Shown one piece after another: positions 1 through 40,771 of a stretch of 40,771 bases of DNA. Position numbers and translations under genes: made by a program. The notes under the pieces were generated by a model that was given only the letters and a program-made list of their open reading frames with translations, ran no database searches and was not told where the DNA came from. Origin of the DNA: Escherichia phage BUCT789; the sequence record PQ999132.1. The stretch is one strand, 5' to 3'. The first letter of the stretch is position 1. The number at the start of each line of letters is the position of its first letter.

Positions 1-239
1 TTCTCTTCTTCTGCCGGTTTAGTGTCAACTAGGTCTTCACCTTCGACCGTGATTTCTTTCGTTACTTCTTTTACAACAGTAGGCGTGATTGTTGCAGTTT
101 CTGCTACACCACTGTCGACGTCTTTACCATATGGCGCCGTGATAGCCTTCGGCAGTTCAGTACGGCGTGCACTGTTCGCAGCAATCAGTTCATGTGCAAC
201 TACGAAACGTTCCAGTAATACTAAGAATTTCTCTAACAT
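1..239 (-). CDS. acidic hypothetical protein, 5' part; gene wraps the window junction and continues at 40366-40644
   Basis: ATG at 239-237 preceded by GAGGAG; frame stays open through position 1 and resumes at window end; D/E-rich product (MLEKFLVLLERF...KYFEEE). The + strand ORF 22..312 is its antisense shadow. Confidence 0.6.
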   Translation of the reverse strand, partial: MLEKFLVLLERFVVAHELIAANSARRTELPKAITAPYGKDVDSGVAETATITPTVVKEVTKEITVEGEDLVDTKPAEEE

Positions 240-270
240 TATTTATTCTCCTCTCGTTTGGTATGGGCTA

Positions 271-299
271 ACTATAATAGCGAACTATTCACTTGTCAA
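271..299 (-). promoter_or_regulatory. sigma70-like promoter, TTGACA-N17-TATAGT (read on minus strand), for the leftward replication operon
   Basis: + strand tgtcaa at 294-299 and actata at 271-276 with a 17-nt spacer; same architecture at 34824-34852 and 38480-38508. Confidence 0.5.
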
Positions 300-303
300 T
301 GGG

Positions 304-332
304 CTTTTCTAAAATAATTAATATGGTACTAT
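304..332 (+). promoter_or_regulatory. weak promoter-like element, TACTAT -10 with poor -35, upstream of the HTH gene
   Basis: TACTATTCACAT at 327-338 matches the -10 and leader of the TTGCAC-N17-TACTAT family; the -35 (cttttc) is weak. Confidence 0.3.
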
Positions 333-363
333 TCACATATCAACTGACTAAGGAGTAATTGAC

Positions 364-579
364 ATGCAACCATCTGAACTAGGCATCCGTGTAGAACAGC
401 GCCGTAAAGAACTCGGTATTTCTCAGCGCCGTCTGGCTGTCCTGACCGGCGTTTCCCAGGGTGCAATTAACCAGCTTGCACTCGGGGTAACGCGGGACGT
501 CCGCCCAGCAACGCTGTTTAAACTGGCGGAAGTGCTAGAGGTAGACGCCAAGTGGCTGGCGTTCGGTGAAGGGGCTTAA
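364..579 (+). CDS. XRE-family helix-turn-helix transcriptional regulator (Cro/CI-like)
   Basis: 71 aa; RBS AAGGAG; HTH signature LGISQRRLAVLTGVSQGAINQL; divergent from the leftward operon. Confidence 0.8.
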   Translation: MQPSELGIRVEQRRKELGISQRRLAVLTGVSQGAINQLALGVTRDVRPATLFKLAEVLEVDAKWLAFGEGA

Positions 580-594
580 CGCCCCTTTCTTTTT
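571..594 (+). terminator. rho-independent terminator at the end of the HTH gene
   Basis: ggggc-ttaac-gcccc hairpin followed by tttcttttt; the stop codon sits in the loop. Confidence 0.55.
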
Positions 595-596
595 GC

Positions 597-2855
597 CTAT
601 TCCAAATCTTCCTCGGTCGCTATCAGCATCTCATTCGGTTCGTATATCGTCTTCGGTCTTAATCTGTCCCCCATCTTTTCAGGTATCCGGTATGTGCCTG
701 GTATAACTTCACCGTTAACATCGCACCCGAGCATCAACTCACCGTCTTTCAGCATCTTCTCAAGATGGTGGTTGGTGATGGCGTGGTCCCCCGAGTTCGC
801 CACTATCTGCCGTTGGGTGAAACCTCGTCCGGTGTCGTCTGACTGTTGCAGGTCTTCCAACGCGGCAAGTATTGATTCCTTACGCCCTTCATCCTTCCCA
901 CGTTTTACCGCGTTCTTTACGTTTTCTTTACCTTCTTTCGTCAGCCCTTCTTCCCGCTCTTTCTCCTCGTCAGTCTTGAACGGCTCGAAGCCCCACGGCA
1001 TCAGTACAAGCGCCTTGTGTGGTTCTGGCAGGTCGAGGTTTACGATTGTGCCATATTCCTCTGTGCTACCGAGGAACTCAACCGCGCGGTACTCTTTCGG
1101 CGGCGGCGCTTCACGGAACTGTACCGACTCCAGCACCATGCCAACCGTCTTCTGTTGAGGCCCATGCTTAAATTTCGAGTGGTATACGTTTATCTGGCGG
1201 TCGGTAGCGCGCTCAATTGTCAGCTCCACATCAACACCGGCATACAGCGCCCCGCTACCACGGGCTTTCTTTCCACCCTTAGGCGTATGGTGGACGACAC
1301 CCACAGCGGCTTTAGTTGCGTCGCGTACTTTTTTAAGGATGGCGATAACTTTACCCATGCCAATTGCAGTTGATGAACTGTTCTCGTCGAACTTGTCAAT
1401 TGTCAGGGCCAGCGTCTGGTTGAGGGTATCGAACGCGACCATACCAATAGGCTCGTCCCCTGCAGCTTCACGCATCCTGCGGATTAGCGCGGGGATTTTT
1501 TTATCACCATGCGCGGCGAGCACCTCACCCATATCAATGACATGTACGTAATCTTTACCTTCCTCGCCATATTTAGCCGCGAGTGCATCTATACGTGTGC
1601 GGGTAGCTGCGCCGCCCTCACCGTCGATATAAAAATGGTGGCAACGCTGCGTATCAGCTCCCGCAAACCGGTATCCGGCGGCGCTCAGGTACATCATCCC
1701 CAGCGTATAGAACGATTTGTACGTGCCGGATTCCCCAACAATATCCCAGATGCAATCTGACGGCATGTACCCCTCAACGACGAAATCAGCCTTTACCGGT
1801 TCAGGTAGCTCGTCCTCTTCTGAGTCATCATCGTCTTCCAGGTCGTCGAGGCTGCATGAAACAGATTCACGCACACCCCATCCGATAGCCTCGGCGACTT
1901 CACTGAACGGCAGCCCGGTCGCATCACACGCGTATTTCCACACTTCTTTCGGGGGCATTCCTTCGGTCGCGGCAATGTCGGTGTCGTGAATCATGGTTAC
2001 GTTCGGCGCTTCGTATCCCTCGCGCGGGAAACATAACAGGAAGTCGTCCGGGCGTGGTGTCGGGTCGCTGTAGTTTTCTGCGTGTTCTGGCGTAGCTGGC
2101 ATCTTAAGGCCACGCGGCGTCATGATGCCGCCGTACTCGAATGCCAGTGCTTCAAACGCATCTGTAAACGCGGTGCGCAGTTCTTCCGGTATCTGGTAAT
2201 CAGATGCGCTGCTGATGTCAACGGCTGGGACGCCTTCCAGTAACTCATCAGGGTCAATCAGGTCGTTGCGGCGCGACCAGATAACGGTAGCGCCGACAGG
2301 AGGCAAGTACATCGGCTGCGAAAGAGTGAACCCGCTGCGGTCGGCGCCCATGCCTTTGAAGAAGTGTTCCAGTAACCCATGACGAACGCGGATGATGTCA
2401 CCGCCTTCAACCGGGCTGGCCAGCGGCATGACGACACGAAAGCGCGGTGACTCATCTGTATGTGACGCCGTGGTATACAGGCACATCGCCCGGCGGCTAC
2501 GCTTAACCAGGCGCACCGCTTCTTGATACTCTTCCGGTGTTGCACTGTCGAAGTCCAGATACGCCAGCGACGATTTGCTTACAGACGCGTCACAGCGATA
2601 GAAGAAGCCTTTACGCGCTTGCTTAAAGTCACCGGTTTCCGGGTCTTTTACGGTGCTGTGCGTAGAGTCGCACGCGGCTGTGATATAGCCGGGGGCGGTC
2701 TTCGGGTTAATCCCGTCGCGAACGGCATCGAGCGGCTGAATTAACTCTTTCAGGTCGTCCAGTGTTGCCGTGTGTGTGGTTCTGACGTTTATATCCTTTT
2801 TCTCTGCCCGCGCGTTGCGACGTGACCACGAGTAGGATAAAATTACATCGGACAT
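597..2855 (-). CDS. DNA primase/helicase (RepA-like RecA-fold ATPase with N-terminal primase-like domain)
   Basis: 752 aa; Walker A GESGTYKS in the C-terminal half; large N-terminal domain; ends in EEDLE. Confidence 0.75.
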   Translation of the reverse strand: MSDVILSYSWSRRNARAEKKDINVRTTHTATLDDLKELIQPLDAVRDGINPKTAPGYITAACDSTHSTVKDPETGDFKQARKGFFYRCDASVSKSSLAYLDFDSATPEEYQEAVRLVKRSRRAMCLYTTASHTDESPRFRVVMPLASPVEGGDIIRVRHGLLEHFFKGMGADRSGFTLSQPMYLPPVGATVIWSRRNDLIDPDELLEGVPAVDISSASDYQIPEELRTAFTDAFEALAFEYGGIMTPRGLKMPATPEHAENYSDPTPRPDDFLLCFPREGYEAPNVTMIHDTDIAATEGMPPKEVWKYACDATGLPFSEVAEAIGWGVRESVSCSLDDLEDDDDSEEDELPEPVKADFVVEGYMPSDCIWDIVGESGTYKSFYTLGMMYLSAAGYRFAGADTQRCHHFYIDGEGGAATRTRIDALAAKYGEEGKDYVHVIDMGEVLAAHGDKKIPALIRRMREAAGDEPIGMVAFDTLNQTLALTIDKFDENSSSTAIGMGKVIAILKKVRDATKAAVGVVHHTPKGGKKARGSGALYAGVDVELTIERATDRQINVYHSKFKHGPQQKTVGMVLESVQFREAPPPKEYRAVEFLGSTEEYGTIVNLDLPEPHKALVLMPWGFEPFKTDEEKEREEGLTKEGKENVKNAVKRGKDEGRKESILAALEDLQQSDDTGRGFTQRQIVANSGDHAITNHHLEKMLKDGELMLGCDVNGEVIPGTYRIPEKMGDRLRPKTIYEPNEMLIATEEDLE

Positions 2856-2913
2856 GTTGTATTTCCTTCAGCAAGTAATTTGGCCTCGGCGTTCACCGCG
2901 TCGGGGCTTTCTT

Positions 2914-3147
2914 TTATTCCAGGTCTTCTAAAGTAGCGGTCATTCCGCGAACTTCAGCAACAGCACTATATTTCCCGCCAACATTCTTCACGACACCGGA
3001 TTTAACCAGTACCTTCAACGACCCTTCAATAATGGCGGAACTATAGTACCTAAAATAACTACGGCGCAAGTCCATAACGCTGCACGACCCTTTTTTACGG
3101 GTTAATGAAACGACTGCCGTAAATACGCGGGACTGGAACTCGGTCAT
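2914..3147 (-). CDS. hypothetical protein (77 aa)
   Basis: ORF overlaps the upstream gene stop by 4 nt (coupled); C-terminus LEDLE. Confidence 0.55.
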   Translation of the reverse strand: MTEFQSRVFTAVVSLTRKKGSCSVMDLRRSYFRYYSSAIIEGSLKVLVKSGVVKNVGGKYSAVAEVRGMTATLEDLE

Positions 3148-3347
3148 TTTACATTCTCCTTAATCCACGCTTCCACTTTCTCCGGGTCGAAAGTACCCGG
3201 CTGCCGGCGGCCCATAATACGGATACAACAATCCGGGAACTTCCCACTCTTTAACCAGTTATTCAGCGTGCGACGGGTAACCCCGATACGCTCGGCTACT
3301 TCATTCTGTGTCATTCTCAAATCCCCATTATCAGTTAACGAAAACAA
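3144..3347 (-). CDS. AlpA/excisionase-like HTH DNA-binding protein
   Basis: Motif MTQNEVAERIGVTRRTLNNWLKSGKFP; start may instead be the internal ATG at 3314, which has a GGGGA RBS. Confidence 0.65.
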   Translation of the reverse strand: MFSLTDNGDLRMTQNEVAERIGVTRRTLNNWLKSGKFPDCCIRIMGRRQPGTFDPEKVEAWIKENVK

Positions 3348-3748
3348 GTATACATTGCGAATAATGGGAAATCAAACATAATCGCACCTATTGACATTAT
3401 GAAAATCTTCGTTTAAGGTGCTTCTGTATCTTAGTTACTTTGATTCTTGTTCACCTTGTAAAACCCGCCGAAAACGAGCGCCCAACGCGAAGTGTTAGGC
3501 GGCAGTTTACTGAACATTCGAATTATCGTAACTTTCCTTCCTAAGTATCTCCGGTTGCCCTGGGCAAGCTCTATTCTCATCGACGGCATATCTCTTAAGT
3601 ATCTGATTTTCTTAATGTGCCGTAGATTCGCAACCGTAAAAATGTAACGATTAGTGGGCAGGCTTAAGGCCTGCCCTTTAGTTACCAAGTAATAAGAATA
3701 AAGGCACAACCCTCACTAAAGAACCACAACGGCAACGTAACTTTTCTC

Positions 3749-3777
3749 TTGCACACCCCAACATAATAGGATACTAT
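3749..3777 (+). promoter_or_regulatory. promoter, TTGCAC-N17-TACTAT with conserved spacer ATAATAGG
   Basis: TTGCAC 3749-3754, TACTAT 3772-3777; conserved leader TTATCGAAACGAG then RBS GAGGAG; near-identical copies at 5188-5216 and 22864-22892. Confidence 0.55.
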
Positions 3778-3811
3778 TCACTTATCGAAACGAGACAGAG
3801 GAGTGAGGGTT

Positions 3812-4003
3812 ATGTTTAAACGTGGTCAGTTGGCTAAAACGAAGCGAGGCGAACAGTACGTAATAGTGTTGCAGGACGAGAACGAGTATGACGAGGATAA
3901 GCTGGTTGACGTATGGGGTCTGGTAAGAAAGAAACCCGGGTTCGCCTTACGCGATAATCTGAAACTCATCGGCAACAATTTTAAATTCAAAGGGGTGAAG
4001 TGA
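3812..4003 (+). CDS. hypothetical protein
   Basis: ATG 3812 with GAGGAG RBS; track ORF 3803..4003 uses an upstream GTG. Confidence 0.6.
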   Translation: MFKRGQLAKTKRGEQYVIVLQDENEYDEDKLVDVWGLVRKKPGFALRDNLKLIGNNFKFKGVK

Positions 4004-4257
4004 TGGAAGAATTAATTTGTATTGAATCCAGCCAGGATGTGCAGGATTGGTTTGTTAAAGGTAACAGATATTCGTCCGGAGTATATTCCGACGGCCGTCG
4101 ATATGTTTTAGACGAAGACGGTGATGAATGGGATTTAAATGACGATGTAAGAGAAACTTTAACCGTTAGCAGGGTCAATGCTGTTTCTGCCTCATTCACA
4201 ACGGCATCGAATCATGATGCTCGTGCCGACGACTCTGAGGGAGGTTGCCGTGAATAA
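4003..4257 (+). CDS. acidic hypothetical protein
   Basis: ATG overlaps the upstream stop (TGATG); D/E-rich product. Confidence 0.6.
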   Translation: MEELICIESSQDVQDWFVKGNRYSSGVYSDGRRYVLDEDGDEWDLNDDVRETLTVSRVNAVSASFTTASNHDARADDSEGGCRE

Positions 4258-4305
4258 TTACCCGTTTATTTTAATAGTCAGCGCCGTTTATGTGGTGCAT
4301 GCGTT

Positions 4306-4539
4306 ATGGGGGCCGGTATGAGAAAACACATAATAAAGGTAGACCATCTGGACGGAGTTAAATTGCCGACGAATAAAGTAGAAACGTGGTGTGGGGCCAC
4401 TCCATCGTACGGTGAATGGCTGTTCCAGGATGCTCAACACGCCTTAATTGCTGTAGAAAACGGATTCAGGCAAGAGCCTTGCGCACAGTGTTTATCCGCT
4501 ATCGCCCAGATCGCAACTCAGGCGTTAAGTGAGGACTAA
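4306..4539 (+). CDS. hypothetical protein
   Basis: 77-aa ORF; alternative ATG at 4318. Confidence 0.55.
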   Translation: MGAGMRKHIIKVDHLDGVKLPTNKVETWCGATPSYGEWLFQDAQHALIAVENGFRQEPCAQCLSAIAQIATQALSED

Positions 4540-4542
4540 GTT

Positions 4543-4686
4543 ATGAGAGAAGCATTCGAACGGTGGGCCGTCGTCGAGGGTCTGCCGGTTAACAAGGGTT
4601 CGAAGAAAGAGTACCTGAACGTTAAGACGCGTCTCGCGTGGCGGGCGTGGAAAGCTGGTGTGTTGTTTATCGCGAATCGGAGGTGA
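4543..4686 (+). CDS. small hypothetical protein (47 aa)
   Basis: ATG 4543 with GAGGA RBS; fills the gap between flanking genes; stop 3 nt before the next ATG. Confidence 0.4.
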   Translation: MREAFERWAVVEGLPVNKGSKKEYLNVKTRLAWRAWKAGVLFIANRR

Positions 4687-4689
4687 TTT

Positions 4690-4875
4690 ATGGGTGAGTG
4701 GATTAAGTGTAGTGAGCGGATGCCTGAGCCTTATGAATACGTTCTTGTAACTGATTGTTTTGTTGGCTGTGAGGTTATGCGTGTTAATTCAGATGGCTAC
4801 TGGGGGCCTGCAAAGAGTTTATATCACGGTGATATAACGCACTGGATGCCGTTACCTGAGCCGCCGGAGGTGTGA
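4690..4875 (+). CDS. DUF551-like small phage protein
   Basis: 61 aa with EW...PE...VLV...HWMPLPEPPE pattern recalled for DUF551; not verified by search. Confidence 0.55.
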   Translation: MGEWIKCSERMPEPYEYVLVTDCFVGCEVMRVNSDGYWGPAKSLYHGDITHWMPLPEPPEV

Positions 4876-5009
4876 TGTTCAATAGTTTGGGATTTTACTG
4901 AGTGACTTACGCTGCTACACAGCAGCGTACAACTTTAGATTAGTGTCGTCAAAAAGCGACACTTTCACCAAACGCAACAATAGAAGCGACTATTGCAGGA
5001 GATGCAACA

Positions 5010-5180
5010 ATGAAACTGAATGACATCGTAACCTGGACTGGTAGAAACGGAGAAAAGCGATTCGGGCTTATTGTTGCGTCAGACGGCAACAAGTACCGTG
5101 TTATGCGATGGCGTCAGTGGGCACGACGCCCGAGGTACTACTGGATTCGTGGCGAACGATTATCTTTAAAACACCAATAA
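5010..5180 (+). CDS. small hypothetical protein (56 aa)
   Basis: ATG 5010 preceded by AGGAG; lies upstream of the 5188 promoter copy. Confidence 0.45.
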   Translation: MKLNDIVTWTGRNGEKRFGLIVASDGNKYRVMRWRQWARRPRYYWIRGERLSLKHQ

Positions 5181-5187
5181 AATTTAC

Positions 5188-5216
5188 TTGCACACACAGA
5201 TATAATAGACTACTAT
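5188..5216 (+). promoter_or_regulatory. promoter, TTGCAC-N17-TACTAT (second copy)
   Basis: TTGCAC 5188-5193, TACTAT 5211-5216; same spacer core and TTATCGAAACGAG leader as 3749-3777. Confidence 0.55.
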
Positions 5217-5245
5217 TCAGTTATCGAAACGAGAGGAGAGAGAAG

Positions 5246-9714: not shown

Positions 9715-9808
9715 GTACATCCCGCCCAATCCCCTTATATAATCCCTTTAGACGCGTAGGGCGCGTCTGGTGCGCTCTGATGGTCAGACGCATATGCAAG
9801 GGGATTTT

Positions 9809-10354
9809 ATGAAGCTGAAACTCAAGCAGCCATCGCCAGAGGTGGTGCAAGCTGCACATGAAGAAGCTGTTAGCGCAAACCGTCGACGTAATCGACCGCG
9901 TGGCAAACAGAGCCTTTATCAATCATCCCGTAATTCCGCCGCGTTGTGGGACCCGGACTATTGTGACGCGCTAATCGAGTTCTTCGATCGCACGTCATGG
10001 GAACTCGTCCCTACATCTAAGGGTGACGAACGCCCGCTGATTCAGGATAAACCCCCATCACTGGCCCGCTTCGCCTTACATATCGGCGTTACTATCCCGA
10101 TTATTAAGCTGTGGCTGCGTGAGATTCCCGCATTTGCAGAAGCCTGGGAGACCGCACAGGCACTTGAAGAGGCTTATTTCACTGAGACAGGGGCCGCAGG
10201 TATCTCTGCTACGTTCGCTGCGGCTAAGCTGGGCCTCGGCAAAGAGAAACCGGTTGAACCCACCGAAGAAACGGCACCGACTGAGATTATTTTCAGTGTT
10301 GCGGAGCCTGTAGGTAAAATTGTAACAACGAATATGGGCGAGGTAGAGGAATGA
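9809..10354 (+). CDS. terminase small subunit (putative)
   Basis: ATG 9809 with AAGGGG RBS; basic N-terminus; stop overlaps the large-subunit ATG. Confidence 0.6.
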   Translation: MKLKLKQPSPEVVQAAHEEAVSANRRRNRPRGKQSLYQSSRNSAALWDPDYCDALIEFFDRTSWELVPTSKGDERPLIQDKPPSLARFALHIGVTIPIIKLWLREIPAFAEAWETAQALEEAYFTETGAAGISATFAAAKLGLGKEKPVEPTEETAPTEIIFSVAEPVGKIVTTNMGEVEE

Positions 10355-11601
10355 GTATTCAGCTATCCGCACCGCAGGCACTGTTCCTGAATTGTGACAA
10401 TAAATATAAGGCCTATGTCGGCGGCTTCGGCAGTGGCAAGACGTTTGTCGGCTGCCTTGACCTGCTTACGTTTATGCTCAAGCACCCCGGTACGCGCCTT
10501 GGCTACTTCGGCCCGACCTATCCCGCCATCCGTGACATCTTCTACCCGACATTCGAGGAAGCGGCTAACCTGCTCGGCCTTGATGTGCTGGTTAAATCCG
10601 GAGACAAAGAGGTTGTGGTTACTCGCGGTAAGACGGTACTAGGAACTGTTATCTGCCGCTCGATGGATAACCCTGGTTCGATTGTGGGTTTCAAAATCGC
10701 CGCCGCGGTCGTGGATGAGTTGGACGTATTGAGCCGCGAGAAAGCCGAGCTGGCGTGGAACAAAATTGTGGCCCGTATGCGTCTTGTTATCCCCGGCGTA
10801 ATTAACCACATCTCCGTAACCACGACGCCAGAAGGGTTCAAGTTCGTCTACGCCAAGTTCAAAGAGAATCCGACACCGAGTTACTCGATGGTGCAGGCTT
10901 CCACACACGAGAATGCGCGTTTCCTGCCGCCGGATTACATTAGCTCGCTCACCGAGACTTACCCGGCGCAGTTGATTAACGCGTATCTGAACGGTGAGTT
11001 CGTCAACCTTACCTCCGGCAGCGTGTATTACGCATACGACCGCCGTAAGCACCGCAGCAAAGAGACAATTCAACCTGGCGACACGCTGTACATCGGGCAG
11101 GACTTCAACGTTACGAAGAACGCAAGCGCCGTGTATGTGCAGCGTAAAGACGGCTGGCACGCGGTGGCAGAACTGAAAGGCCTGTTCGATACACCGGACA
11201 CCGTGAGAGTGATTACGGAGAAGTGGAAGTCGCAGGGCCACCGCATTGTCGTTTACCCCGACGCCAGCGGCAAGAACCGCAAGACCAACTCGGCATCGAT
11301 CTCAGATATTGCATTACTCCAGCAGGCCGGGTTCGATGTTCGCGCTAAATCCGCCAACCCCCCGGTTAAAGACCGTGTTTTAGCAGTGAATACCGCGCTG
11401 GAAAAAGGTAAGCTGTGGGTTAATGACCACTTATGCCCTGAGATAGCGAAGACGCTGGAGCAGCAGGCATATGATGATAACGGAGAGCCCGCTAAAGACG
11501 GCGTCATTGACCATATGGCGGATGCTCTCGGCTATCCTGTAGTTTACGAGATGCCGGTGGTTAAACCAGTAATCAACATCCCGGTGACTTTCGCACTTTA
11601 A
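10351..11601 (+). CDS. terminase large subunit
   Basis: 416 aa; Walker A GGFGSGKTF near N-terminus; Walker B-like VVDELD; position upstream of portal. Confidence 0.85.
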   Translation: MSIQLSAPQALFLNCDNKYKAYVGGFGSGKTFVGCLDLLTFMLKHPGTRLGYFGPTYPAIRDIFYPTFEEAANLLGLDVLVKSGDKEVVVTRGKTVLGTVICRSMDNPGSIVGFKIAAAVVDELDVLSREKAELAWNKIVARMRLVIPGVINHISVTTTPEGFKFVYAKFKENPTPSYSMVQASTHENARFLPPDYISSLTETYPAQLINAYLNGEFVNLTSGSVYYAYDRRKHRSKETIQPGDTLYIGQDFNVTKNASAVYVQRKDGWHAVAELKGLFDTPDTVRVITEKWKSQGHRIVVYPDASGKNRKTNSASISDIALLQQAGFDVRAKSANPPVKDRVLAVNTALEKGKLWVNDHLCPEIAKTLEQQAYDDNGEPAKDGVIDHMADALGYPVVYEMPVVKPVINIPVTFAL

Positions 11602-11612
11602 GAGGACAACAA

Positions 11613-13106
11613 ATGGTTTCCGCAAACATTAACGCAGGGCAAGGGCAGAACGTTAAAACCCGCCACCGCCAGTACGAAGAGTATTTCCCTAAGTGGCAGA
11701 AGGTGCGACATGCGCTTTCTGGCGACCTGACATCGTATCTACGTGACGTCGGTAAGAATGAGCCGGACCCGGTTTACGGTCGCCAGCGTCAGGCTGAATA
11801 CGAAGCGGGGGCAATTTGCTACAACTTCACCAAGCGAACGCTTTCCGGCATGGTAGGCAGCGTAATGCGCAAAGACCCTGAGATGAATATTCCGTCTCAG
11901 ATGGAATACCTGACAACTAACTGCGATGGGTCTGGTGTCGGCCTGTGGCAGCACGCACAAGATACCCTGTATGAGATTGATGCCGTTGGTCGCGGTGGTT
12001 TGCTGGTGGACGCTCCCGCGGTAGAAGTCGCCACTATGGCGGAGCAAAACGAGGGCTTACTTAACCCGACAATCGCTTTCTACACCGCGGAGAACATCAT
12101 CAACTGGCGTCTTCAGCGCGTCGGTTCGGTCAATCGTGTGGTTATGGTCGTATTGCGCGAAGAATACGAGTACACCGACGGGACTGATGAGTTCAGCCCC
12201 AACTACGGCGAGCAATACCGCGTCCTTGATATTTTCGAAGGCCAGTATCGCCAGCGTCTGTACCGCTTTAACCAGAAAGGCGCACTGGTGGAAGGTGGCT
12301 ATATCGAAATATTCCCGAAACTCGGTAATATTCCGGTCGGGGTGATTCCGTTCACGTTCATCGGCGCGGGAAATAACGACTCAACCCCTGACGATGCCCC
12401 TTTGTTGCCGTTGGCTGAACTTAATATAGGGCACTTCCGTAACAGCGCAGACAATGAGGAGTCCAGCTTCGTTGTAGGCCAGCCAACTCTGTTCATCGCC
12501 CCTGGTGAGAACATGAGCATGGAGCAATGGAAAGAAGCTAACCCCCACGGCGTGCGCATGGGGTCGCGTTCGGGTCATAACATCGGCTACGGCGGCAATG
12601 CGTTTCTGGTCCAGGCAGGAGAGAACAACCTCGCCAAACAGAACATGCTGGATAAAGAGAACCAGGCAATCCAGATTGGTGCACAGCTTATTACCCCGAC
12701 GCAGCAAATCACCGCGGAATCGGCACGCCTGCAACGCGGCGCTGATACGTCTGTTATGGCAACAATCGCACGTAACGTAAGCATGGCGTATACCGATGCG
12801 CTGAAATGGGTTGCGGGGATGCTCGGACTTAGTGACGGTACTGAAATTGAGTTCAAACTGAATATGGAGTTCTTCCTGCAACCTATGACCGCCCAGGACC
12901 GCGCTCAGTGGATGGCGGATATTAACGCGGGCCTGTTACCGGCTACCGCTTACTATGCTGCGTTGCGTAAGGCGGGGGTAACTGACTGGACCGACGAGGA
13001 TATTCAGAATGCTATCGAAGATGCACCTCTGCCGTTAGGTGCTGCTTCTCAGGTAGCAGGAGAGATTCCGCAGTCGGCGCAGCAAAAAGACCCCACCCAG
13101 CAGTAA
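11613..13106 (+). CDS. portal protein
   Basis: 497 aa ORF directly after terminase and before the head morphogenesis gene. Confidence 0.8.
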   Translation: MVSANINAGQGQNVKTRHRQYEEYFPKWQKVRHALSGDLTSYLRDVGKNEPDPVYGRQRQAEYEAGAICYNFTKRTLSGMVGSVMRKDPEMNIPSQMEYLTTNCDGSGVGLWQHAQDTLYEIDAVGRGGLLVDAPAVEVATMAEQNEGLLNPTIAFYTAENIINWRLQRVGSVNRVVMVVLREEYEYTDGTDEFSPNYGEQYRVLDIFEGQYRQRLYRFNQKGALVEGGYIEIFPKLGNIPVGVIPFTFIGAGNNDSTPDDAPLLPLAELNIGHFRNSADNEESSFVVGQPTLFIAPGENMSMEQWKEANPHGVRMGSRSGHNIGYGGNAFLVQAGENNLAKQNMLDKENQAIQIGAQLITPTQQITAESARLQRGADTSVMATIARNVSMAYTDALKWVAGMLGLSDGTEIEFKLNMEFFLQPMTAQDRAQWMADINAGLLPATAYYAALRKAGVTDWTDEDIQNAIEDAPLPLGAASQVAGEIPQSAQQKDPTQQ

Positions 13107-23778: not shown

Positions 23779-26080
23779 TACGGCTTCCCTAATTGCCAGA
23801 GTAAAAACAGAAGGCGCTGATGTAGCCGCTAAACAGCTTGACGCTATGGCGGCATCCGCAGACCGTGCGGACACATCCGTAAACAAACTAACGCCGGATG
23901 TTAATAAAGTAAACTCCGCTACGTCTAAAGCGGCTTCTGACGGTTTCGCTAAATTCCGTAACGCCGCCGGGCAGGTAGGCTTCCAGGTGCAGGACATGGT
24001 CGTCCAGTTGCAGTCCGGCACGTCTGCATTCGTAGCAATCGGGCAACAAGGCTCTCAGCTTGCGGGTGCTTTCGGCCCTGGTGGCGCGGTGCTTGGGGCT
24101 GTAATTGCTCTCGCATCAGCAATTGGCGGTGTCCTGTATAAATCACTAACGGAGGCCGAAGGTAGCTCAAAAGACCTCGAGGCCGCGCAAAAGCAGTTAA
24201 AAGACACCTTCCAACAAACGGCATCCGGCTCTCTCGAACTGACAGACGGCCTTATCCAGCTTACCCAAATAAGCCGAGAAGCGGCGGAGACTCAACTTGC
24301 TTTGGCTAAGGCTAACGCAGACCTTATCGCGCAGCAAACAGCTAAAGCCGTTCGTGAGGACGCAGAGTCGTGGGAGACGTGGAAAGCCTCCACGGCATCA
24401 GCTATCAGCCAGTACGATGCATTGGTCTCTAAAGGTGCGGATGTAGGCGACACGTTAGAAAAACTCGGTGGCACTTACGAGGGTAACATCGTAGGCGTCA
24501 ACATGCTGGCGCAGAATATCGCAGAGCTTAGCAGTAAGTTTGGGGTTAACCGTGACCAGGCGCTGGAGATGATAGCGGCGCAGAGTGCGTTTAACAAAGA
24601 GCCAACCGCCGAGAATGCCCGTCGCATCGCCGATGTGTTTACCGACTGGCTCGGTAATACAAAACAGTTGAACCCGGAACTTATCCGCCTGACCGACAAT
24701 GCCAACAAGAACGCCACGGCACTGGAGAACGCGGAGAAGTCCGCAAACGCGGCGGCGGAGGCCCAAAAGAATCTTGGTCGTAACGTCAACTCAACAACGC
24801 AGAGATTCCAGGAACAGAACGAAGCTATCGTCAAAAACCAGCAAATCGCTATCTTAAGTGACCGCGAGCGTATCCGTGCGCAAGCTGAACTGGATAAGCA
24901 GGCGTTCGCTAAACGTGAAGCTGTCACCAAAGAACAGATCGCCGCGTATAATGCTGCGCGTGACACGGAAGCACAACAAGACATCGCTCGCATCGACGCT
25001 ACCGAAAAAGCGAAGGCCGACCGCGAGGCCAAATCGAACGAGAAACGGCTGGCGGCACAAGCCAAACGCGAAGAAACGGCGGCTGAACGACAGAAAAAAG
25101 CGGCGGAAGATTTCCTGGCTACTGTCGACCGCACAACCGGAGATGAGATTTCGCGCATTACCGCTGCGGAAGAGCAGAAACTGGCAAAACTGGAAGAGTT
25201 TAACAGAGCTGGGACTATAAGCCAGCAGCAATACGAAAACGCCAGGACGCAGATTATGCTCTCGGCCGAACAGGCCCGCCAGGAAGAACTCGCCAAGCGA
25301 GAGAAAGAACGACAGGAGAAGAACCAGAAAGGCGAAGACTTCATGGCTCAGATTATGGGCCAAAACGCCGCTGAGCTTGAGCTTCTGGAGATTCAGGAGC
25401 AACAAAAACTGGACGTTGCTGACAGGTATCGCGAACAGAATCTGATTAACGAAGAACAGTACCAGGCCGCGGTTAATGCTATAAATGACCAGTACGCGTT
25501 AAAACGTGCTAACGCAACGGGTAACGCTTTTGGCATGATGGCGGATAATATTAAATCGTCGCTTGGCGAAGCGTCTACTGCGTACAAAGCTTTCGCTATT
25601 GCGCAGGCCACTATTGCCACATACACCTCCGCTATAGAGGCTTATAAATCTGCATCGGCTATCCCTATTGTTGGATGGGTGCTCGGGCCTGTAGCCGCCG
25701 CCGCCGCCGTAGCCGCGGGGCTCGCAAACATTGGCAAAATTCGTTCGGCCCGTGAGCAGGGCGGTAACTTAGCTGCAGGTCAGTTATCTACTATCGCGGA
25801 ACGTAACAAGCCAGAAGTTATTATGCCTGCAGGGGCGTCACGCGTCCGTACCGCAGAACAGATGCGCCAGATTATGGGCGAGAACGGCAACAAGTCAGGC
25901 GGTGACAGCGTTACAATCGTCAACAACACCACCGGACGTGTTGATTCCGCCGTTACAGAGCGTGACGACGAAGGGCGGTTACGTGTTATCATCAGCGAAA
26001 CAGTATCGGCGGCGTTACAAGACAGCAACAGTGCAATCTCTAAGTCACGCCGTGCTACACGAAACCAGCCGGGGTATTAA
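23756..26080 (+). CDS. tail tape-measure protein
   Basis: 774 aa; long A/E/K/Q-rich coiled-coil; Gly/Ala-rich hydrophobic segment near C-terminus. Confidence 0.85.
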   Translation: MRAEKMADTASLIARVKTEGADVAAKQLDAMAASADRADTSVNKLTPDVNKVNSATSKAASDGFAKFRNAAGQVGFQVQDMVVQLQSGTSAFVAIGQQGSQLAGAFGPGGAVLGAVIALASAIGGVLYKSLTEAEGSSKDLEAAQKQLKDTFQQTASGSLELTDGLIQLTQISREAAETQLALAKANADLIAQQTAKAVREDAESWETWKASTASAISQYDALVSKGADVGDTLEKLGGTYEGNIVGVNMLAQNIAELSSKFGVNRDQALEMIAAQSAFNKEPTAENARRIADVFTDWLGNTKQLNPELIRLTDNANKNATALENAEKSANAAAEAQKNLGRNVNSTTQRFQEQNEAIVKNQQIAILSDRERIRAQAELDKQAFAKREAVTKEQIAAYNAARDTEAQQDIARIDATEKAKADREAKSNEKRLAAQAKREETAAERQKKAAEDFLATVDRTTGDEISRITAAEEQKLAKLEEFNRAGTISQQQYENARTQIMLSAEQARQEELAKREKERQEKNQKGEDFMAQIMGQNAAELELLEIQEQQKLDVADRYREQNLINEEQYQAAVNAINDQYALKRANATGNAFGMMADNIKSSLGEASTAYKAFAIAQATIATYTSAIEAYKSASAIPIVGWVLGPVAAAAAVAAGLANIGKIRSAREQGGNLAAGQLSTIAERNKPEVIMPAGASRVRTAEQMRQIMGENGNKSGGDSVTIVNNTTGRVDSAVTERDDEGRLRVIISETVSAALQDSNSAISKSRRATRNQPGY

Positions 26081-34530: not shown

Positions 34531-34534
34531 TGTA

Positions 34535-34789: not shown

Positions 34790-34790
34790 T

Positions 34791-35468: not shown

Positions 35469-37731
35469 AACGGTACACCTCTTCCCCAGCCCATGTTAAC
35501 GGGAACCCTTCGGCCCACTCAGGTAATGAGCATAGCAGGTCACCCATCTCTTTAACCGTGTACTCTGGCGTGTCTGGCGTTTCGGCAACACATTCGTCAT
35601 GTACGTGGAGTACAATTGGGTAGCCCGCCGCCTCGACCGTCAGGAGTCCGTTAACCAGTAAATCACGGCACAACGCCTGGATGATGTTTTCACACAATTT
35701 TCCGCCGTGGGTGTACAAAGTTGTCCACTGGCGGGTGGTCTGATTTTCACCCTGATACTTAATGCGGACGTTAGTAGTAACGCGCCCATCCTCGTCAGTC
35801 TCTTTAGTGACGCTTAAGCCTATGCCAGGGTAGGACATGATGCGCCCAGACGGCAGTTCCACGCACAACCACCAACCCGGAACCGGATTACCGTGGTTGT
35901 CTTTTTCTTTGGTACGCCAGATGCGGATGGCTCTGTCGCCGTTAAGGCGTACTCGGGCCCCCGCCCAAAACTCTCGTCCCGGATTTCTGATGGCGGCTAT
36001 CACCGAATCCTTAAGGTCATTCCAGAATTTCACTGTTTCCGGATGGGCTTCCCGCCACATGCGCTTAATGGCGTCACAGGTGCGCCAGACTTCTTTAGGC
36101 AGCACATAAGAGGCCCGTTCATCTTTTTTACCAGGCTTTGGCGGGCGTTTAGCCTCCTGAATTCTGGCCCATTCGTAGCCACGGGCGGTAGCCGCCCAAA
36201 TGTGGTCGGGGAACGTGCCCCGCATTGTCTCTGTCATTTTAAAGAGGTCCAGCCCGTAAGTTTTAGCCATAGTCATAAAAGCCCCTACGCCCCCCTCGTA
36301 GCCGAGGCCGAGTTCGCAACATTTCCCGACCTGACGTAGGTCCTTACGGGTGGCTTTTAGTTCTACGGGGTCCATGCCAAACATCTTGCCCGCGGTGGCG
36401 CAATAAATATCAATCCCTGCGCGGAAGGTCTCAAGCGCGGATGTCTCCCCCGCGGTCCAGGCCAACCCGCGCCCTTCTACGTTTGAGTAGTCGGCAACGA
36501 GCAACTTATTACCCTTTTCAGGGATGATGCAACTGCGAACAGTCGAGGCTGTCAGCTTGGATACGTCGAAACGACGGTGCGCCCGACCCTTTAGCAGCAG
36601 ATTGATGCCGAACGATAGGGGGTTGAGACGACGGTTCCAGTCTTCGTCGGACTCCCACGGCTGGCGTACAAGTTTCTTCTCCTCGTTAGTCGGGTCATCA
36701 TGATAGTACCCGCGCGACAGGTTCTGCGGCTGGAACCCTTTACCCGCAAATCGTAAAGTGCGCTTTGCCCCACCGTACTGGATGCAACCGCGGCGGCGGC
36801 CGTCTTTGGACCGTCCTAGCAGGAGCGGTTTGTATTTTGTCGACGCCGTGGAGGCCGCGCCGAGGCGCATCTCAATGATTGTGCGCGCATCGTCAGGTAA
36901 GTCGTCGTCCTCTAGCAAACCTTCGAGCGTTGCTTTCTGCGCATTATAGATATTGTAGGCCGGTGCCAGCTCCCGAAGGATTGGCAGGAAGTCTTTACCC
37001 GTTAGCTTCCCGCCAAATTTAGCCCTGGCCTCGTTTTTTAGCTCTTGCTTGTGGCGTTCAACTGCTGCTACCGCCGCCTCAGCAAGAGCCGCATCAACAA
37101 AGAAGCCTCGGTCGTTGATTAACTGGTCAAGTTCAAGTACACGGTCCTCGAAATCGGAGTTACCCCAACGTGGCAGCTTATGGAAGACTTCACGCATCGC
37201 TGTGATGTCGCTCACGGCGTACTTGATGAACAGCGCCCATTCGTCCGGGTGCGTTTCGGCGGTGTAGCGGCGGATTTTATAGTTCTTCGGGGTTGGTTTG
37301 GAGAAACGCTGAATCAGAGCCTTGCCACGTTTATCTTTCGCGTTGTCGGCGGATACGCCCAGCACTTCGCATAATGCGTCAAGTGAACCCGGCAGCGCGT
37401 GGCGAAACGCCCAAATCATAGTGTCAATGGTGTTGCTGACCGGAATATCGAAGCCCCAGCAGTTCTTCATGATGAGCCTATCGAAAAGTCCACCGTTATG
37501 CCACACCATCTTAATGCGACTGTTTGGCTTCACCAGACGGCGTAACGCGCGGTGTAAATCTCCCGGCATGTCGCTGCCGTCAGTGCAGTCCCATACCTGA
37601 ACAGGCTCGTCATCAAAAGCATAGGTGCAGATGAGCACTTCGGTAGTCGGGTGTTCGGCGTAAGCATAGGAGCCGACTTTCTTCAAATCGGCTTCGGAGA
37701 AGGTTTCAAAGTCTAAGAACAGATAACTCAT
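35458..37731 (-). CDS. family A DNA polymerase with N-terminal 3'-5' exonuclease domain
   Basis: 757 aa; exo motif LDFETFSE; motif A DYSNVEGRGLAW, motif B RQVGKCCELGLGYEGG, motif C LHVHDE. Confidence 0.9.
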   Translation of the reverse strand: MSYLFLDFETFSEADLKKVGSYAYAEHPTTEVLICTYAFDDEPVQVWDCTDGSDMPGDLHRALRRLVKPNSRIKMVWHNGGLFDRLIMKNCWGFDIPVSNTIDTMIWAFRHALPGSLDALCEVLGVSADNAKDKRGKALIQRFSKPTPKNYKIRRYTAETHPDEWALFIKYAVSDITAMREVFHKLPRWGNSDFEDRVLELDQLINDRGFFVDAALAEAAVAAVERHKQELKNEARAKFGGKLTGKDFLPILRELAPAYNIYNAQKATLEGLLEDDDLPDDARTIIEMRLGAASTASTKYKPLLLGRSKDGRRRGCIQYGGAKRTLRFAGKGFQPQNLSRGYYHDDPTNEEKKLVRQPWESDEDWNRRLNPLSFGINLLLKGRAHRRFDVSKLTASTVRSCIIPEKGNKLLVADYSNVEGRGLAWTAGETSALETFRAGIDIYCATAGKMFGMDPVELKATRKDLRQVGKCCELGLGYEGGVGAFMTMAKTYGLDLFKMTETMRGTFPDHIWAATARGYEWARIQEAKRPPKPGKKDERASYVLPKEVWRTCDAIKRMWREAHPETVKFWNDLKDSVIAAIRNPGREFWAGARVRLNGDRAIRIWRTKEKDNHGNPVPGWWLCVELPSGRIMSYPGIGLSVTKETDEDGRVTTNVRIKYQGENQTTRQWTTLYTHGGKLCENIIQALCRDLLVNGLLTVEAAGYPIVLHVHDECVAETPDTPEYTVKEMGDLLCSLPEWAEGFPLTWAGEEVYRYAK

Positions 37732-37751
37732 TATTTTGACCCTTAGTAAAA

Positions 37752-37769
37752 AGGCCCAATAAAGGGCCT
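37752..37769 (-). terminator. rho-independent terminator/attenuator between SSB-like and polymerase genes
   Basis: aggccc-aataaa-gggcct; minus strand continues with TTTTTACT. Confidence 0.5.
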
Positions 37770-37789
37770 TAATTAAACAGATTCAGATA

Positions 37790-38422
37790 TTAACCACGGC
37801 GACGACGTTCGCGGCGCGGTGCTTCATCTTCTTCGTCGTCTTCCAGGTCGTCGGTGCTCGCTACTACACTGGAGCCGCCGAAGCGTTTACCTTCGCCCAT
37901 ATACTTGATGCCGAGGATGGTAGCGCACAGGTTTTTCCAATCTTTGTGCCACCATAATTCTACAGATACGTTTGCGATACATCCGCTATATACCTGCTCG
38001 CCTTCTATTTCTTTCCCGTCGATGTTGAAATCAGGCTCGGTTTGTTTTTCACCTTTAGCCGATGTCATAATCACCGGTTGGCGGTTGTTTGTAGCGCGGA
38101 AATACAGACCTTCTTCAAAATCCTCAATCGGATTATCTCGCATTGCCAGGTCACGGACGCAGCATTTGTCTGCGTGGTGGTCTGCACCGTAGTTGGCCTT
38201 CATCCATTTCTCGGCAGCAGCGGCCCCGATTGCATCTGTTACAACTTCCAACGCGGTGTCGTAAAGCGCATCAATTTGAGGATGGTCAGGCTGCATAAGA
38301 ACAGTAACCTGATACTTACCCTTAATCAGTTTACCGGTTTTCTTGTCCTCAGAGTCGGCAGCACGTTCAAATACGTTAACCCATGCAGTGTTTACTTTAC
38401 GCAGATTCAGTTTAATACCCAT
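37790..38422 (-). CDS. single-strand DNA-binding protein candidate (DUF2815-like) with acidic C-terminal tail
   Basis: 210 aa; C-terminus STDDLEDDEEDEAPRRERRRRG; sits next to the Cas4-like nuclease. Confidence 0.5.
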   Translation of the reverse strand: MGIKLNLRKVNTAWVNVFERAADSEDKKTGKLIKGKYQVTVLMQPDHPQIDALYDTALEVVTDAIGAAAAEKWMKANYGADHHADKCCVRDLAMRDNPIEDFEEGLYFRATNNRQPVIMTSAKGEKQTEPDFNIDGKEIEGEQVYSGCIANVSVELWWHKDWKNLCATILGIKYMGEGKRFGGSSVVASTDDLEDDEEDEAPRRERRRRG

Positions 38423-38479
38423 CGTGATTTCTCGCTTTTCAGTTTCGTTTACTCCGGGAGCTGCCCGGCCAGTGATTTA

Positions 38480-38508
38480 ACTATAATAGTTAGCTATTCA
38501 GGAGTCAA
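38480..38508 (-). promoter_or_regulatory. sigma70-like promoter, TTGACT-N17-TATAGT (minus strand)
   Basis: + strand agtcaa 38503-38508 and actata 38480-38485, 17-nt spacer. Confidence 0.5.
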
Positions 38509-38512
38509 CACT

Positions 38513-39754
38513 TTATTCTAAATCTTCTTCACTAACCTGATTCCACCCAGGCCGTTTGTCGTCTGCCGTTGCGACACATGGTGCGCCGGGCTTACGGGTA
38601 ATGAAGTCTTTCAGTTCTTCCTCCGGTATTACTTTAACCGCTTCGGCCGGCGTCATAAGAACTACCTTTTGCAGCATAGTGCCGTACTTCTCAAATACTG
38701 CATCGGTATCTTTCCACGCACGATTACCAGGACGACCTTCAACCAGCTTATACCCCGGCACTTTCTTACCGGAATGCAAAGCGGCTGCCATAGCTTTCTC
38801 AACCTTGTCGATGTGCTGGCGCAACAACGGCAACTTCTCGTACTCAGCTACGAGTTGCTCTGGTGTCAGTTCCAGTGCAAAGTCGCCCTCCAGTTCTTCC
38901 GCCAGTACCGAGTTAACGGTTTTTGTACGCGTGGCGCACTGTTCCGAGAACCGACACCACTGACATCCATCGACCGACGGCCTGAAGTCCGACGCTTTCA
39001 GGTTCTTTTTACCACGGAAATACGCATCAAGCGCCAACAGAGCTCGTTTCTGCGCGAACTTAGCGAACAGTTCCAGACCCTCGACCGAGATGTCCCATTC
39101 CGAAGCACCCCCGGCGTACGGCTGGAAAATAACCAGACGAACAACTGTGATGTTATAACGTCTCTTGAGTCGTCGATAAACACCGAGAGCGTAAAGCATA
39201 AGCTGCTTGTTTTCTTTCGCTTCAACACGATGTCGTCCTGTTTTAAGGTCGCCGATAATGAGCATGTGCTCGTCGGTGTTAACCAGTTCCTGTACGGCAA
39301 CAAGGTCGGCGGTTCCGAACGTCTCGACACCTTCATAACCTGGATGCAATACCTCAGTAAGATTGACGCGCATTTCCAGCTTGGCGTAAGTAGCTACGTC
39401 GATAATCGGTTTGCTGTAGTCGGTGTACTTGCGCACCTGCTCAATCATGTCGGCCGTAATCAGTACCGCCCCTTTCATCGGGCTGATTAGCGCCTTAATC
39501 TGGCCTTTACCCTCATCCAGCACATAAGCACCGACTTCGCGCTCTAACGGCAACGCAGTTCCGCGAATATAAGCGTTGAGATGTACCTCAGCTATGGTGT
39601 GGCACGCAGTACCTGTAACAGCCGCTTTACCTGACGTGTTAGGAATATCTTTTTCACAGGCCAGTGACGCCGCGCAGCTTAGCCACTTTTTAGCTCCCGA
39701 CGGTGACAGTAAGGCGTGTACATCGTTATTTCCGCCGCGTTCTTTTAGTTTCAT
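38513..39754 (-). CDS. Cas4/RecB-like PD-(D/E)XK exonuclease with Fe-S cysteines (DUF2800-like)
   Basis: N-terminal Cys plus C-terminal CQWCRFSEQC; IGDLKTGR...EAK nuclease core; ends SEEDLE; start ATG 39754 (track lists 39775). Confidence 0.7.
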   Translation of the reverse strand: MKLKERGGNNDVHALLSPSGAKKWLSCAASLACEKDIPNTSGKAAVTGTACHTIAEVHLNAYIRGTALPLEREVGAYVLDEGKGQIKALISPMKGAVLITADMIEQVRKYTDYSKPIIDVATYAKLEMRVNLTEVLHPGYEGVETFGTADLVAVQELVNTDEHMLIIGDLKTGRHRVEAKENKQLMLYALGVYRRLKRRYNITVVRLVIFQPYAGGASEWDISVEGLELFAKFAQKRALLALDAYFRGKKNLKASDFRPSVDGCQWCRFSEQCATRTKTVNSVLAEELEGDFALELTPEQLVAEYEKLPLLRQHIDKVEKAMAAALHSGKKVPGYKLVEGRPGNRAWKDTDAVFEKYGTMLQKVVLMTPAEAVKVIPEEELKDFITRKPGAPCVATADDKRPGWNQVSEEDLE

Positions 39755-39909
39755 GCTCTTAAACTCCCGCCCCATTTAACTTTACGCGTTTTGCGTTTAT
39801 AGGCGCACGTGTCGCCGCTACGGTTGAAGATGATCAGCCAAGTCGAGTTGCTTACTCGAAAAGGCTGGTGACGTTTAATAAAGATAAGTCGCGCTTTACG
39901 GTTCGTCAT
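39751..39909 (-). CDS. small basic hypothetical protein (about 52 aa; absent from the ORF track)
   Basis: ATGA-coupled at both ends within the leftward operon. Confidence 0.35.
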   Translation of the reverse strand: MTNRKARLIFIKRHQPFRVSNSTWLIIFNRSGDTCAYKRKTRKVKWGGSLRA

Positions 39910-40052
39910 TCTTCTACCCTCTCCACCCAAGCATCGTCAAAAGTATCAAAATCAAGATTATCGTATGCTGCGTATGCGGCAGGTACATCCAGGTATCGGC
40001 TGTGCTCTGTAGCCACGCCGTTAGTGTAAGTAAATATCGCCCAGTAAATCAT
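39907..40052 (-). CDS. small acidic hypothetical protein (about 48 aa; absent from the ORF track)
   Basis: ATG 40052 overlaps the upstream stop; own stop overlaps the next ATG. Confidence 0.35.
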
Positions 40053-40321
40053 GCTCTGCTCTCCCACTGGTCAATTAAATGTCTTGTCTTATAGTCACAG
40101 TGCATGGCCCAGCTGTACATCGACTCAAAGACATAAAAGTCAGGTTTGGCGAATGTCGTGCGCTTAATCTGTGACACGTGTCGGCCTATATCTTTAGGCC
40201 GAGGTACTTTGCCTAAGTACGCCATCTCTTCCATCTGGTGCGCACCTGACGGCGCACGTAGCAGCCATAGCGCCTCTGTGCCATCCCGTCTGTCTACGGC
40301 GCGGTAGAGTTGGTAAATCAT
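40049..40321 (-). CDS. hypothetical protein (90 aa)
   Basis: RBS GAGGGT upstream on the minus strand. Confidence 0.55.
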   Translation of the reverse strand: MIYQLYRAVDRRDGTEALWLLRAPSGAHQMEEMAYLGKVPRPKDIGRHVSQIKRTTFAKPDFYVFESMYSWAMHCDYKTRHLIDQWESRA

Positions 40322-40365
40322 AATTCCGACCCTCAGTTAAAGCGGCCAGAAGGCCGCGAGATAGT

Positions 40366-40771
40366 TATTCTTCTTCGAAGTACTTGTTCTTGATTGCCGT
40401 CAGGCGTTTCAGGTATTCGGCCAGGTCTTCGTCTTTAATCGCGGCAATCTTCATCTTCTTACCGGTGAACTCTTCCAGCAGTTCATCGGAATCATCACAC
40501 GCGGCATCGCTCGGACCTTCGTTAATCGCATCGTCGATAGCCTGAATCTGGTCACGCAGAGACTGGTAGTCGACTTCTTGTTTCTCTTCTTCCGGTTCTG
40601 GCGTATGTTCCTCTACTTTAGCTTTACGAGGTTTGCGTTTCGGCTTCTCTTCTTCTGCCGGTTTAGTGTCAACTAGGTCTTCACCTTCGACCGTGATTTC
40701 TTTCGTTACTTCTTTTACAACAGTAGGCGTGATTGTTGCAGTTTCTGCTACACCACTGTCGACGTCTTTAC
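40366..40771 (-). CDS. acidic hypothetical protein, 3' part (same gene as 1..239)
   Basis: Stop TAA at 40366-40368; frame continuous with 1..239 once the 127-bp duplicated end is collapsed. Confidence 0.6.
40645..40771. repeat. 127-bp terminal duplication of positions 1-127
   Basis: Exact identity by direct comparison; it lies inside a coding sequence, so most simply an assembly overlap of a circular or circularly permuted genome. Confidence 0.9.

Follow-up and report, generated by a model that had tools for sequence, protein, structure and literature searches.

The identical 127-nt ends of the Escherichia phage BUCT789 record (PQ999132.1; 40,771 nt, the whole of which is referred to below as the window) are almost certainly a k-mer overlap left routinely by the short-read assembler on a complete genome of 40,644 bp. 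By sequence comparison, the phage is a Kagunavirus (Guernseyvirinae) siphophage: each half of the window, used as a query, matched Escherichia coli Kagunavirus phages at 91–99% nucleotide identity over 60–98% of its length, the ICTV genus criterion being a nucleotide identity of about 70% or more. On the same kind of evidence, the genome belongs to an E. coli phage species already represented by phage Henuyfy11N (PV696613.1, 41,103 bp), because the two share approximately 97% identity over approximately 98–99% of their lengths and exceed the 95% threshold for a species. The terminase, portal, capsid, tail, tailspike, replication and lysis modules are all present.

Positions 1–127 and 40645–40771 of the window are identical at 127 of 127 nucleotides, and 127 nt is also the longest prefix that recurs as a suffix. 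The original prediction had reported this identity, together with a unique length of 40,644 bp after one copy is collapsed, and both were reproduced on recomputation. Within the unique genome the next longest exact direct repeat is 30 nt, corresponding to a shared terminator stem-loop, so a chance origin of the 127-nt identity is ruled out; the remaining repeat families in the window are imperfect and no longer than 48 nt. The features at and around the joined ends are as follows.

1..40644: complete non-redundant Kagunavirus genome, a circular map with an arbitrary linearization, collinear as a circle with Henuyfy11N
1..127: terminal overlap, copy to be kept, inside a 519-nt open reading frame and encoding residues 38–80 of the minus-strand gene that crosses the junction
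40645..40771: terminal overlap, redundant copy to be trimmed as a probable assembler k-mer overlap, exactly identical to 1–127
1..239, minus strand: 5′ part of the junction gene (codons 1–80), with its ATG at 239–237
40365..40644, minus strand: 3′ part of the junction gene (codons 80–172 and the stop codon), PHROG 3127, function unknown
271..299, minus strand: predicted near-consensus sigma-70-like promoter (TTGACA-17-TATAGT, 11/12) upstream of the junction gene

Collapsing one copy of the overlap restores a single minus-strand gene, complement(40365..40644,1..239), of 519 nt including the stop codon and 172 amino acids, with the junction splitting codon 80. Among the long open reading frames that run across the collapsed junction, it is the only one with homologues. 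The protein it encodes matches XVC02714.1, from the Henuyfy11N CDS 25542..26060(−), at 100% identity and aligns over its full length with five orthologues, including those of K1H, Shashou, hz69 and EF2-1; relatives carry the annotation '13.88 kDa late protein'. The C-terminal half is almost invariant in the six phages compared, and in the orthologue alignment the junction codon sits in the invariant motif EEEKPKRKPRK. The duplicated segment had been placed within a coding sequence that becomes one continuous gene upon collapse, and this holds for the 519-nt frame; the coordinates proposed for it (40366..40644 plus 1..239) do not, as 279 and 239 nt do not add up to a multiple of three. The low coordinate is 40365, and the strand, previously unstated, is minus. 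Transcription from the predicted promoter at 271..299 would cross the window ends. The predicted promoter also overlaps a copy of a repeated motif at 274–291.

The collapsed sequence is contiguous in independently determined genomes. A single high-scoring segment pair (HSP) to Henuyfy11N runs from window position 40046 through the junction 40644|1 to 6078, and the junction itself aligns gap-free over 1,199 nt at 98.1% identity. In addition, a 700-nt sequence spanning the collapsed junction is matched in one place, over 80% or more of its length, by 343 phage records. As circles, the window and Henuyfy11N are collinear, the aligned portion being 99.3% for the window and 98.1% for Henuyfy11N. 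The ends of the Henuyfy11N record fall on the adjacent window bases 15022|15023, and the window junction is internal in Henuyfy11N; because the ends of each record are thus internal in the other, closure is reciprocal. The genome had been called complete, and collinearity and reciprocal closure bear this out. Gene order round the circle also matches in the Kagunavirus phages K1H, hz69, Shashou and EF2-1, whereas the linearization points differ: Henuyfy11N opens at window position 15023, K1H at the gene for the large terminase subunit (TerL), and Shashou before that for the small subunit (TerS). Segment by segment, identity to Henuyfy11N ranges from 94 to 99.7%, with greater divergence in the replication module (94.2%) than in the structural module (99.7%). 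The two genomes are further distinguished by three indels of about 260–510 nt, none of them at the junction: the window lacks Henuyfy11N Gp23 (approximately 510 nt) and Gp41 (approximately 260 nt) and has an extra segment of approximately 300 nt at 39747–40046, which is absent from Henuyfy11N and shared with hz69.

The length of the overlap points to its origin. It is odd and equals the end-overlap length reported for SPAdes, in which 127 is the largest permitted k. Artificial end overlaps of 127 bp produced by SPAdes have been documented for phages (PMC5923482, PMC8104045), and the CheckV study found terminal repeats to be concentrated at lengths equal to an assembler k, at 55, 77 and 99 bp across metagenomes (PMC8116208). 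In a salmophage study that included a Guernseyvirinae phage, most contigs had identical 77-bp ends, which were attributed to SPAdes and circularly permuted genomes (PMC9409062). Uncultivated relatives in IMG/VR have end overlaps of 55, 55, 55, 55, 89, 119 and 141 nt, which lie at different places in the genome and in one case within the helicase-primase gene. Among 24 near-complete contigs whose TerL is at least 98% identical, the break points lie 0–73% of the genome length upstream of TerL, and the identical TerL protein recurs on many metagenome contigs (96 blocks) with varied break points. A 40-mer taken from the repeat had no exact counterpart in the viral, metagenome or genome contig collections, and no identical entry was found for the tailspike protein. 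The cut in the window is similarly arbitrary, falling within codon 80 of a conserved gene at a site not kept among relatives. In its exact prefix–suffix identity, k-mer length and arbitrary intragenic cut, the window does not differ in kind from the circular contigs of SPAdes and metaSPAdes that CheckV classes as 'DTR contigs' (DTR, direct terminal repeat). We suggest that the contig closed on itself in a de Bruijn-graph assembler, which left a k-mer overlap; judged from the overlap length alone, the program was most probably SPAdes or metaSPAdes run at k = 127. The cycle would have been cut at an arbitrary point, here within a gene, and the shared 127-mer written at both ends. Removal of one copy yields the complete, non-redundant genome of 40,644 bp.

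A circular assembly graph is what headful packaging would be expected to produce, and the packaging genes of the phage are of a kind associated with it.

9770..10354, plus strand: small terminase subunit TerS (phrog_3064 'terminase', E = 8e-72; 179/194 residues identical to Shashou TerS)
10351..11601, plus strand: large terminase subunit TerL (Pfam Terminase_6N and Terminase_6C; 411/416 residues identical to Shashou TerL)
11613..13106, plus strand: portal protein (DUF4055, phrog_145)

The three genes are adjacent and TerL is of a headful-associated type, although the Pfam assignment does not by itself indicate headful packaging. PhageTerm predicts pac for Shashou, the contig ends of which were joined by PCR and Sanger sequencing, and calls Sciku headful; the Guernseyvirinae phage Se_F1 was called redundant, random and permuted (PMC9409062). 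For clade placement we relied on a published phylogeny, in which TerL proteins of the K1G/K1H type group with those of headful phages and not with the short-DTR clade (PMC5582158). The annotators of Shashou reported HHpred similarity of its TerS and portal proteins to P22 gp3 and gp1, respectively; searches of solved structures by sequence with TerL and TerS of the window returned no match, for TerS even at E ≤ 10. The open-library literature on Guernseyvirinae ends yielded PhageTerm calls and TerL phylogeny, and no restriction or Bal31 mapping. The virion ends are probably of the headful (pac) type, terminally redundant and circularly permuted, an assignment carried over from relatives and from read-statistics software rather than from physical mapping. 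Headful packaging from concatemers would give linear, terminally redundant, circularly permuted molecules, and reads from such molecules would tile a circle, making the assembly graph circular. The window ends would not be physical ends, because the assembly circle would arise from permuted headful DNA. The resemblance to P22-type headful packaging lies in the same TerS–TerL–portal order, a Terminase_6N/6C TerL and the pac or headful PhageTerm calls in close relatives; in contrast to P22, no mapped pac site is known from the Kagunavirus group. If the system is P22-like, the pac site would be expected in or near the TerS gene (9770..10354). We know of no validated pac motif for the Kagunavirus/Guernseyvirinae group. 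The original prediction had held that packaging ends are not defined by the sequence, which agrees with the pac and headful calls in relatives with a 99%-identical terminase. Its description of the genome as circularly closed applies to the assembly map and need not extend to the virion DNA, probably a linear molecule with circular permutation.

The overlap could be an artefact and the virion could nevertheless have fixed cos ends elsewhere, the circle then arising from ligated or concatemeric cos junctions. Circular assemblies in which genes run across the contig ends are likewise obtained from cos phages, such as the Chi-like Se_F2 and Se_F6b (PMC9409062), and the sequence by itself is compatible with a cos site. 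We nevertheless consider this arrangement very unlikely: PhageTerm made pac or headful calls for Shashou, Sciku and Se_F1, all of the same subfamily, and the Terminase_6N/6C TerL, 99% identical to that of Shashou, groups with headful phages.

It is extremely improbable that the 127 nt represent a true direct terminal repeat in the style of T7 or SP6, in which the terminase cuts at fixed sites and the repeat is duplicated. Such a repeat would likewise give exact terminal identity, and its length falls within the range seen in short DTRs, such as those of 165–289 bp in K1E/K1F-like podophages (PMC5582158). The short DTRs of T7, SP6 and K1E are similar in length (about 150–290 bp) but lie at fixed, conserved genome ends and belong to a different terminase clade (PMC5582158), whereas the repeat in the window is intragenic and common to no relative. 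The reading frame and operon that contain it are conserved and the junction falls within an invariant motif, whereas a true DTR would be expected at a conserved, normally non-coding position that forms the genome ends. No relative ends there, the 343 records having the site internal and in single copy, and the overlaps of relatives vary in both length and place. TerL falls outside the short-DTR clade, with its close identity to the pac-called Shashou protein and a type that clusters with headful phages, and SPAdes is documented to leave artefacts of just this length. An assembly overlap and not a terminal repeat was also the reading put forward originally, and the length of 127, the site in a conserved gene and operon, and the differing overlaps of relatives all favour it. 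A particular form of the fixed-end reading, in which this Kagunavirus strain gave up headful packaging for fixed ends located inside a replication-module gene, is next to negligible in probability; were it true, every virion would carry a split gene, restored only after circularization or concatemer formation.

We give hardly any weight to false circularization, in which an internal repeat of at least 127 nt closed an incomplete or chimeric contig and 40,644 bp would fall short of the full genome. Assemblers are known to close contigs wrongly at repeats, a fault that CheckV filters out, and at 40.6 kb the genome lies towards the lower end of the size range of the genus (relatives, 40.6–45.6 kb). 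However, it is fully collinear with the independent Henuyfy11N, with indels away from the junction, closure is reciprocal, no module is missing, and BUCT823 (40,637 bp) and ULINTec2 (40,815 bp) are of like size. A real tandem 127-nt duplication was rejected, as it frameshifts a conserved gene and is found in no relative: with both copies retained in tandem, the junction gene meets a stop at codon 81, and this two-copy junction is not collinear with Henuyfy11N.

The 127-bp repeat is an ordinary assembly artefact without biological meaning, and the contig should not be recorded as bearing a biological direct terminal repeat. The matter is one of bookkeeping only, in that trimming 127 nt corrects the genome length (to 40,644 bp), the gene count and the split junction gene. 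The sequence brings no new biology and is usable as the complete genome of a known species for completeness benchmarks.

The first and last 127 nt of the window (1–127 and 40645–40771) are identical, and no longer prefix of the window recurs as its suffix; removal of one copy leaves 40,644 nt of unique sequence. Both the 127-bp identical ends and this unique length agree with the original prediction, and the identity is real and far above chance level. The second-longest exact direct repeat in the genome is 30 nt, and the other repeat families in the window are at most 48 nt long and imperfect. The 30 nt are shared by two copies of a common terminator-like stem-loop found at module boundaries, GGCCCCGAAAGGGGCC followed by a T-run, with near-identical copies at 14672–14705, 20885–20918 and 32704–32737 and a weaker copy at 37739–37772.

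Three ORFs cross the collapsed junction (40644|1), only one of which has homologues:

complement(40365..40644,1..239), minus strand, junction gene, 519 nt including stop, 172 aa

The repeat had been predicted to lie within a coding sequence, and it encodes residues 38–80 of this gene, with the junction at codon 80. The predicted continuity across the junction also stands; the boundary should read 40365 instead of 40366, and the strand, omitted in the prediction, is minus. The product is assigned to PHROG 3127, a family without known function, matches XVC02714.1 of Escherichia phage Henuyfy11N (PV696613.1) at 100% identity and aligns over its full length with orthologues of the Kagunavirus phages K1H, Shashou, hz69 and EF2-1, in which an invariant EEEKPKRKPRK motif contains the junction codon. 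Retention of both 127-nt copies in tandem would shift the frame (127 = 3 × 42 + 1) to a stop at codon 81, and thus delete the near-invariant C-terminal half of the protein. The annotation of XVC02714.1 as '13.88 kDa late protein' is at odds with a 172-aa acidic product and looks like a carry-over; by gene order, the junction gene is part of the replication-gene cluster and follows a sigma-70-like promoter.

This predicted near-consensus promoter (TTGACA-17-TATAGT, 299→271, minus strand) is directly upstream of the junction gene, so the window ends also cut a predicted transcription unit. An 18-nt dyad, ATAATAG-N4-CTATTCA, occurs eight times in the window (0.23 expected), nested in longer repeats of 34–48 nt (families D3, D5, I1 and I5):

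274–291, dyad; on the minus strand, this copy reads as the TTGACA-17-TATAGT promoter
318–335, dyad
3763–3780, dyad
5202–5219, dyad
7766–7783, minus strand, dyad
22861–22878, minus strand, dyad
34827–34844, dyad, like the promoter layout by eye
38483–38500, dyad, like the promoter layout by eye

The overlap of the dyad with the –10 box suggests a putative operator, perhaps the target of a cro-like HTH protein encoded at 364–579.

Closure was assessed against the independent Henuyfy11N genome (41,103 bp); when both are treated as circles, they are collinear over four blocks:

block 1, 17.9 kb, structural genes (15023–32877), 99.7% identity
block 2, 6.9 kb, replication genes (32874–39747), 94.2% identity
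block 3, 6.7 kb, across the junction, 97.4% identity
block 4, 8.9 kb, 99.4% identity

A single HSP runs from window position 40046 through 40644|1 to 6078, and the two terminal bases of the Henuyfy11N record, first and last, fall on the neighbouring window positions 15023 and 15022, respectively. Each record's ends are therefore internal and contiguous in the other, which makes the two records different linearisations of one circular map and bears out the prediction of a complete, circularly closed genome. Alignment coverage is 99.3% for the window and 98.1% for Henuyfy11N, and the layouts differ only by three indels of approximately 260–510 nt, none at the junction. A 700-nt collapsed junction sequence is present in one place in 343 phage records, at internal coordinates among the records listed. 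The indels lie at window positions 32877, 39747–40046 and 6078–6083: Henuyfy11N Gp23 ('DNA primase', ~510 nt) and Gp41 (~260 nt) are absent from the window, whereas ~300 nt at 39747–40046, common to hz69, phage 26 and Bas73, are absent from Henuyfy11N. Together with the mosaic identity, these sequence differences suggest recent module exchange.

Hundreds of Guernseyvirinae phages match both window halves, the top matches being E. coli Kagunavirus phages at 91–99% nucleotide identity; the window is a complete strain of an already known Kagunavirus species. A search of the window for tRNA genes found none, and its packaging and head genes are the standard set:

9770–10354, small terminase subunit (TerS)
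10351–11601, large terminase subunit (TerL), Terminase_6N/6C
11613–13106, portal
13143–14219, Mu-F-like head protein, 358 aa, without intein
16231–17199, major capsid protein

Some relatives with identical TerL (L012–L014) carry an intein (PF14890) in a 619-aa Mu-F-like head morphogenesis protein (gene at approximately 12815–14674), and the Shashou helicase likewise holds an intein. Long antisense ORFs lie on the minus strand within the tape-measure gene (24475–25344, 289 aa) and the tail-tube gene (19965–20417, 150 aa); their counterparts are annotated CDSs in Henuyfy11N (Gp17 and Gp910), probably spurious calls.

The 127-nt repeat is a well-known assembly artefact and no biological feature. 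Phage U136B is reported to have had 127-bp terminal repeats after SPAdes assembly, which were then trimmed (PMC8104045). The CheckV survey of 751,567 repeat-ended contigs found repeat lengths concentrated at the k values of assemblers and attributed this to random breakage of circular templates during assembly (PMC8116208, Extended Data Fig. 3). Genes that span some of the contig extremities have been described in a phage set that includes the Guernseyvirinae member Se_F1 (PMC9409062). Among IMG/VR relatives whose TerL shares 98% or more identity with that of the window, we recovered both ends of ten contigs (eight metagenomic, from sample 3300045988, and two IMG isolate-genome entries). Six of the eight metagenomic relatives have exact terminal overlaps (55, 55, 55, 89, 119 and 141 nt) at differing genome positions. 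The seventh, L114 (IMGVR_UViG_3300045988_018079), breaks inside the helicase-primase gene and begins with 63 nt of unrelated leader sequence (1–63), directly after which its 55-nt overlap lies; the start of this contig is probably a small chimera formed during assembly. The eighth has no end overlap, nor do the isolate-derived genomes, both opened at the TerL start. The overlap lengths are all odd, like assembler k-mer sizes, and vary among near-identical phages, unlike a conserved biological terminal repeat. The distance from contig 5′ end to TerL ranges over 0–31.6 kb (0–73% of the genome; 24 near-complete contigs), and many further metagenome contigs, one of them a SPAdes-named NODE contig, carry the exact window TerL and have break points at scattered positions. 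The window's own contig had no match in the contig collections searched. More than 20 different near-complete Kagunavirus contigs (41–45 kb, TerL identity at least 99%) come from sample 3300045988 (L018–L043, L097–L137); several of them share variable regions as break sites (window ~7.5–7.7 kb and ~4.0–4.7 kb) with unequal overlaps (for example, 119 versus 89 nt), and the breaks seem to follow accessory regions that vary among strains. The original prediction had favoured an assembly overlap over a true terminal repeat, as do the interrupted conserved gene and the variable length and position of relatives' overlaps.

As to the real virion ends, TerL and TerS are identical to their Shashou counterparts at 411/416 and 179/194 residues; searches of solved structures by sequence matched neither. 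The Shashou genome, a SPAdes assembly whose contig ends were joined by PCR with Sanger sequencing, received a pac call from PhageTerm (PMC6776780). The calls were headful for Sciku, its sister phage (PMC6753286), and 'redundant, random, permuted' for Se_F1 (PMC9409062). K1G/K1H-type large terminases group with headful phages, not with the short direct terminal repeat (DTR) clade (PMC5582158). Searches of the open literature turned up no study that maps the DNA ends of this phage group physically. Cos ends on the virion DNA have a low probability beside these calls. That the window ends are true 127-bp DTR ends is very unlikely: the exact end match fits them, but they would cut a conserved gene. 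Judging from relatives, P22-style headful packaging from concatemers is most likely; each virion would then hold a linear molecule of a little over 40.6 kb, with terminal redundancy and circular permutation, and the reads would close into a circle because of this proposed redundancy and permutation.
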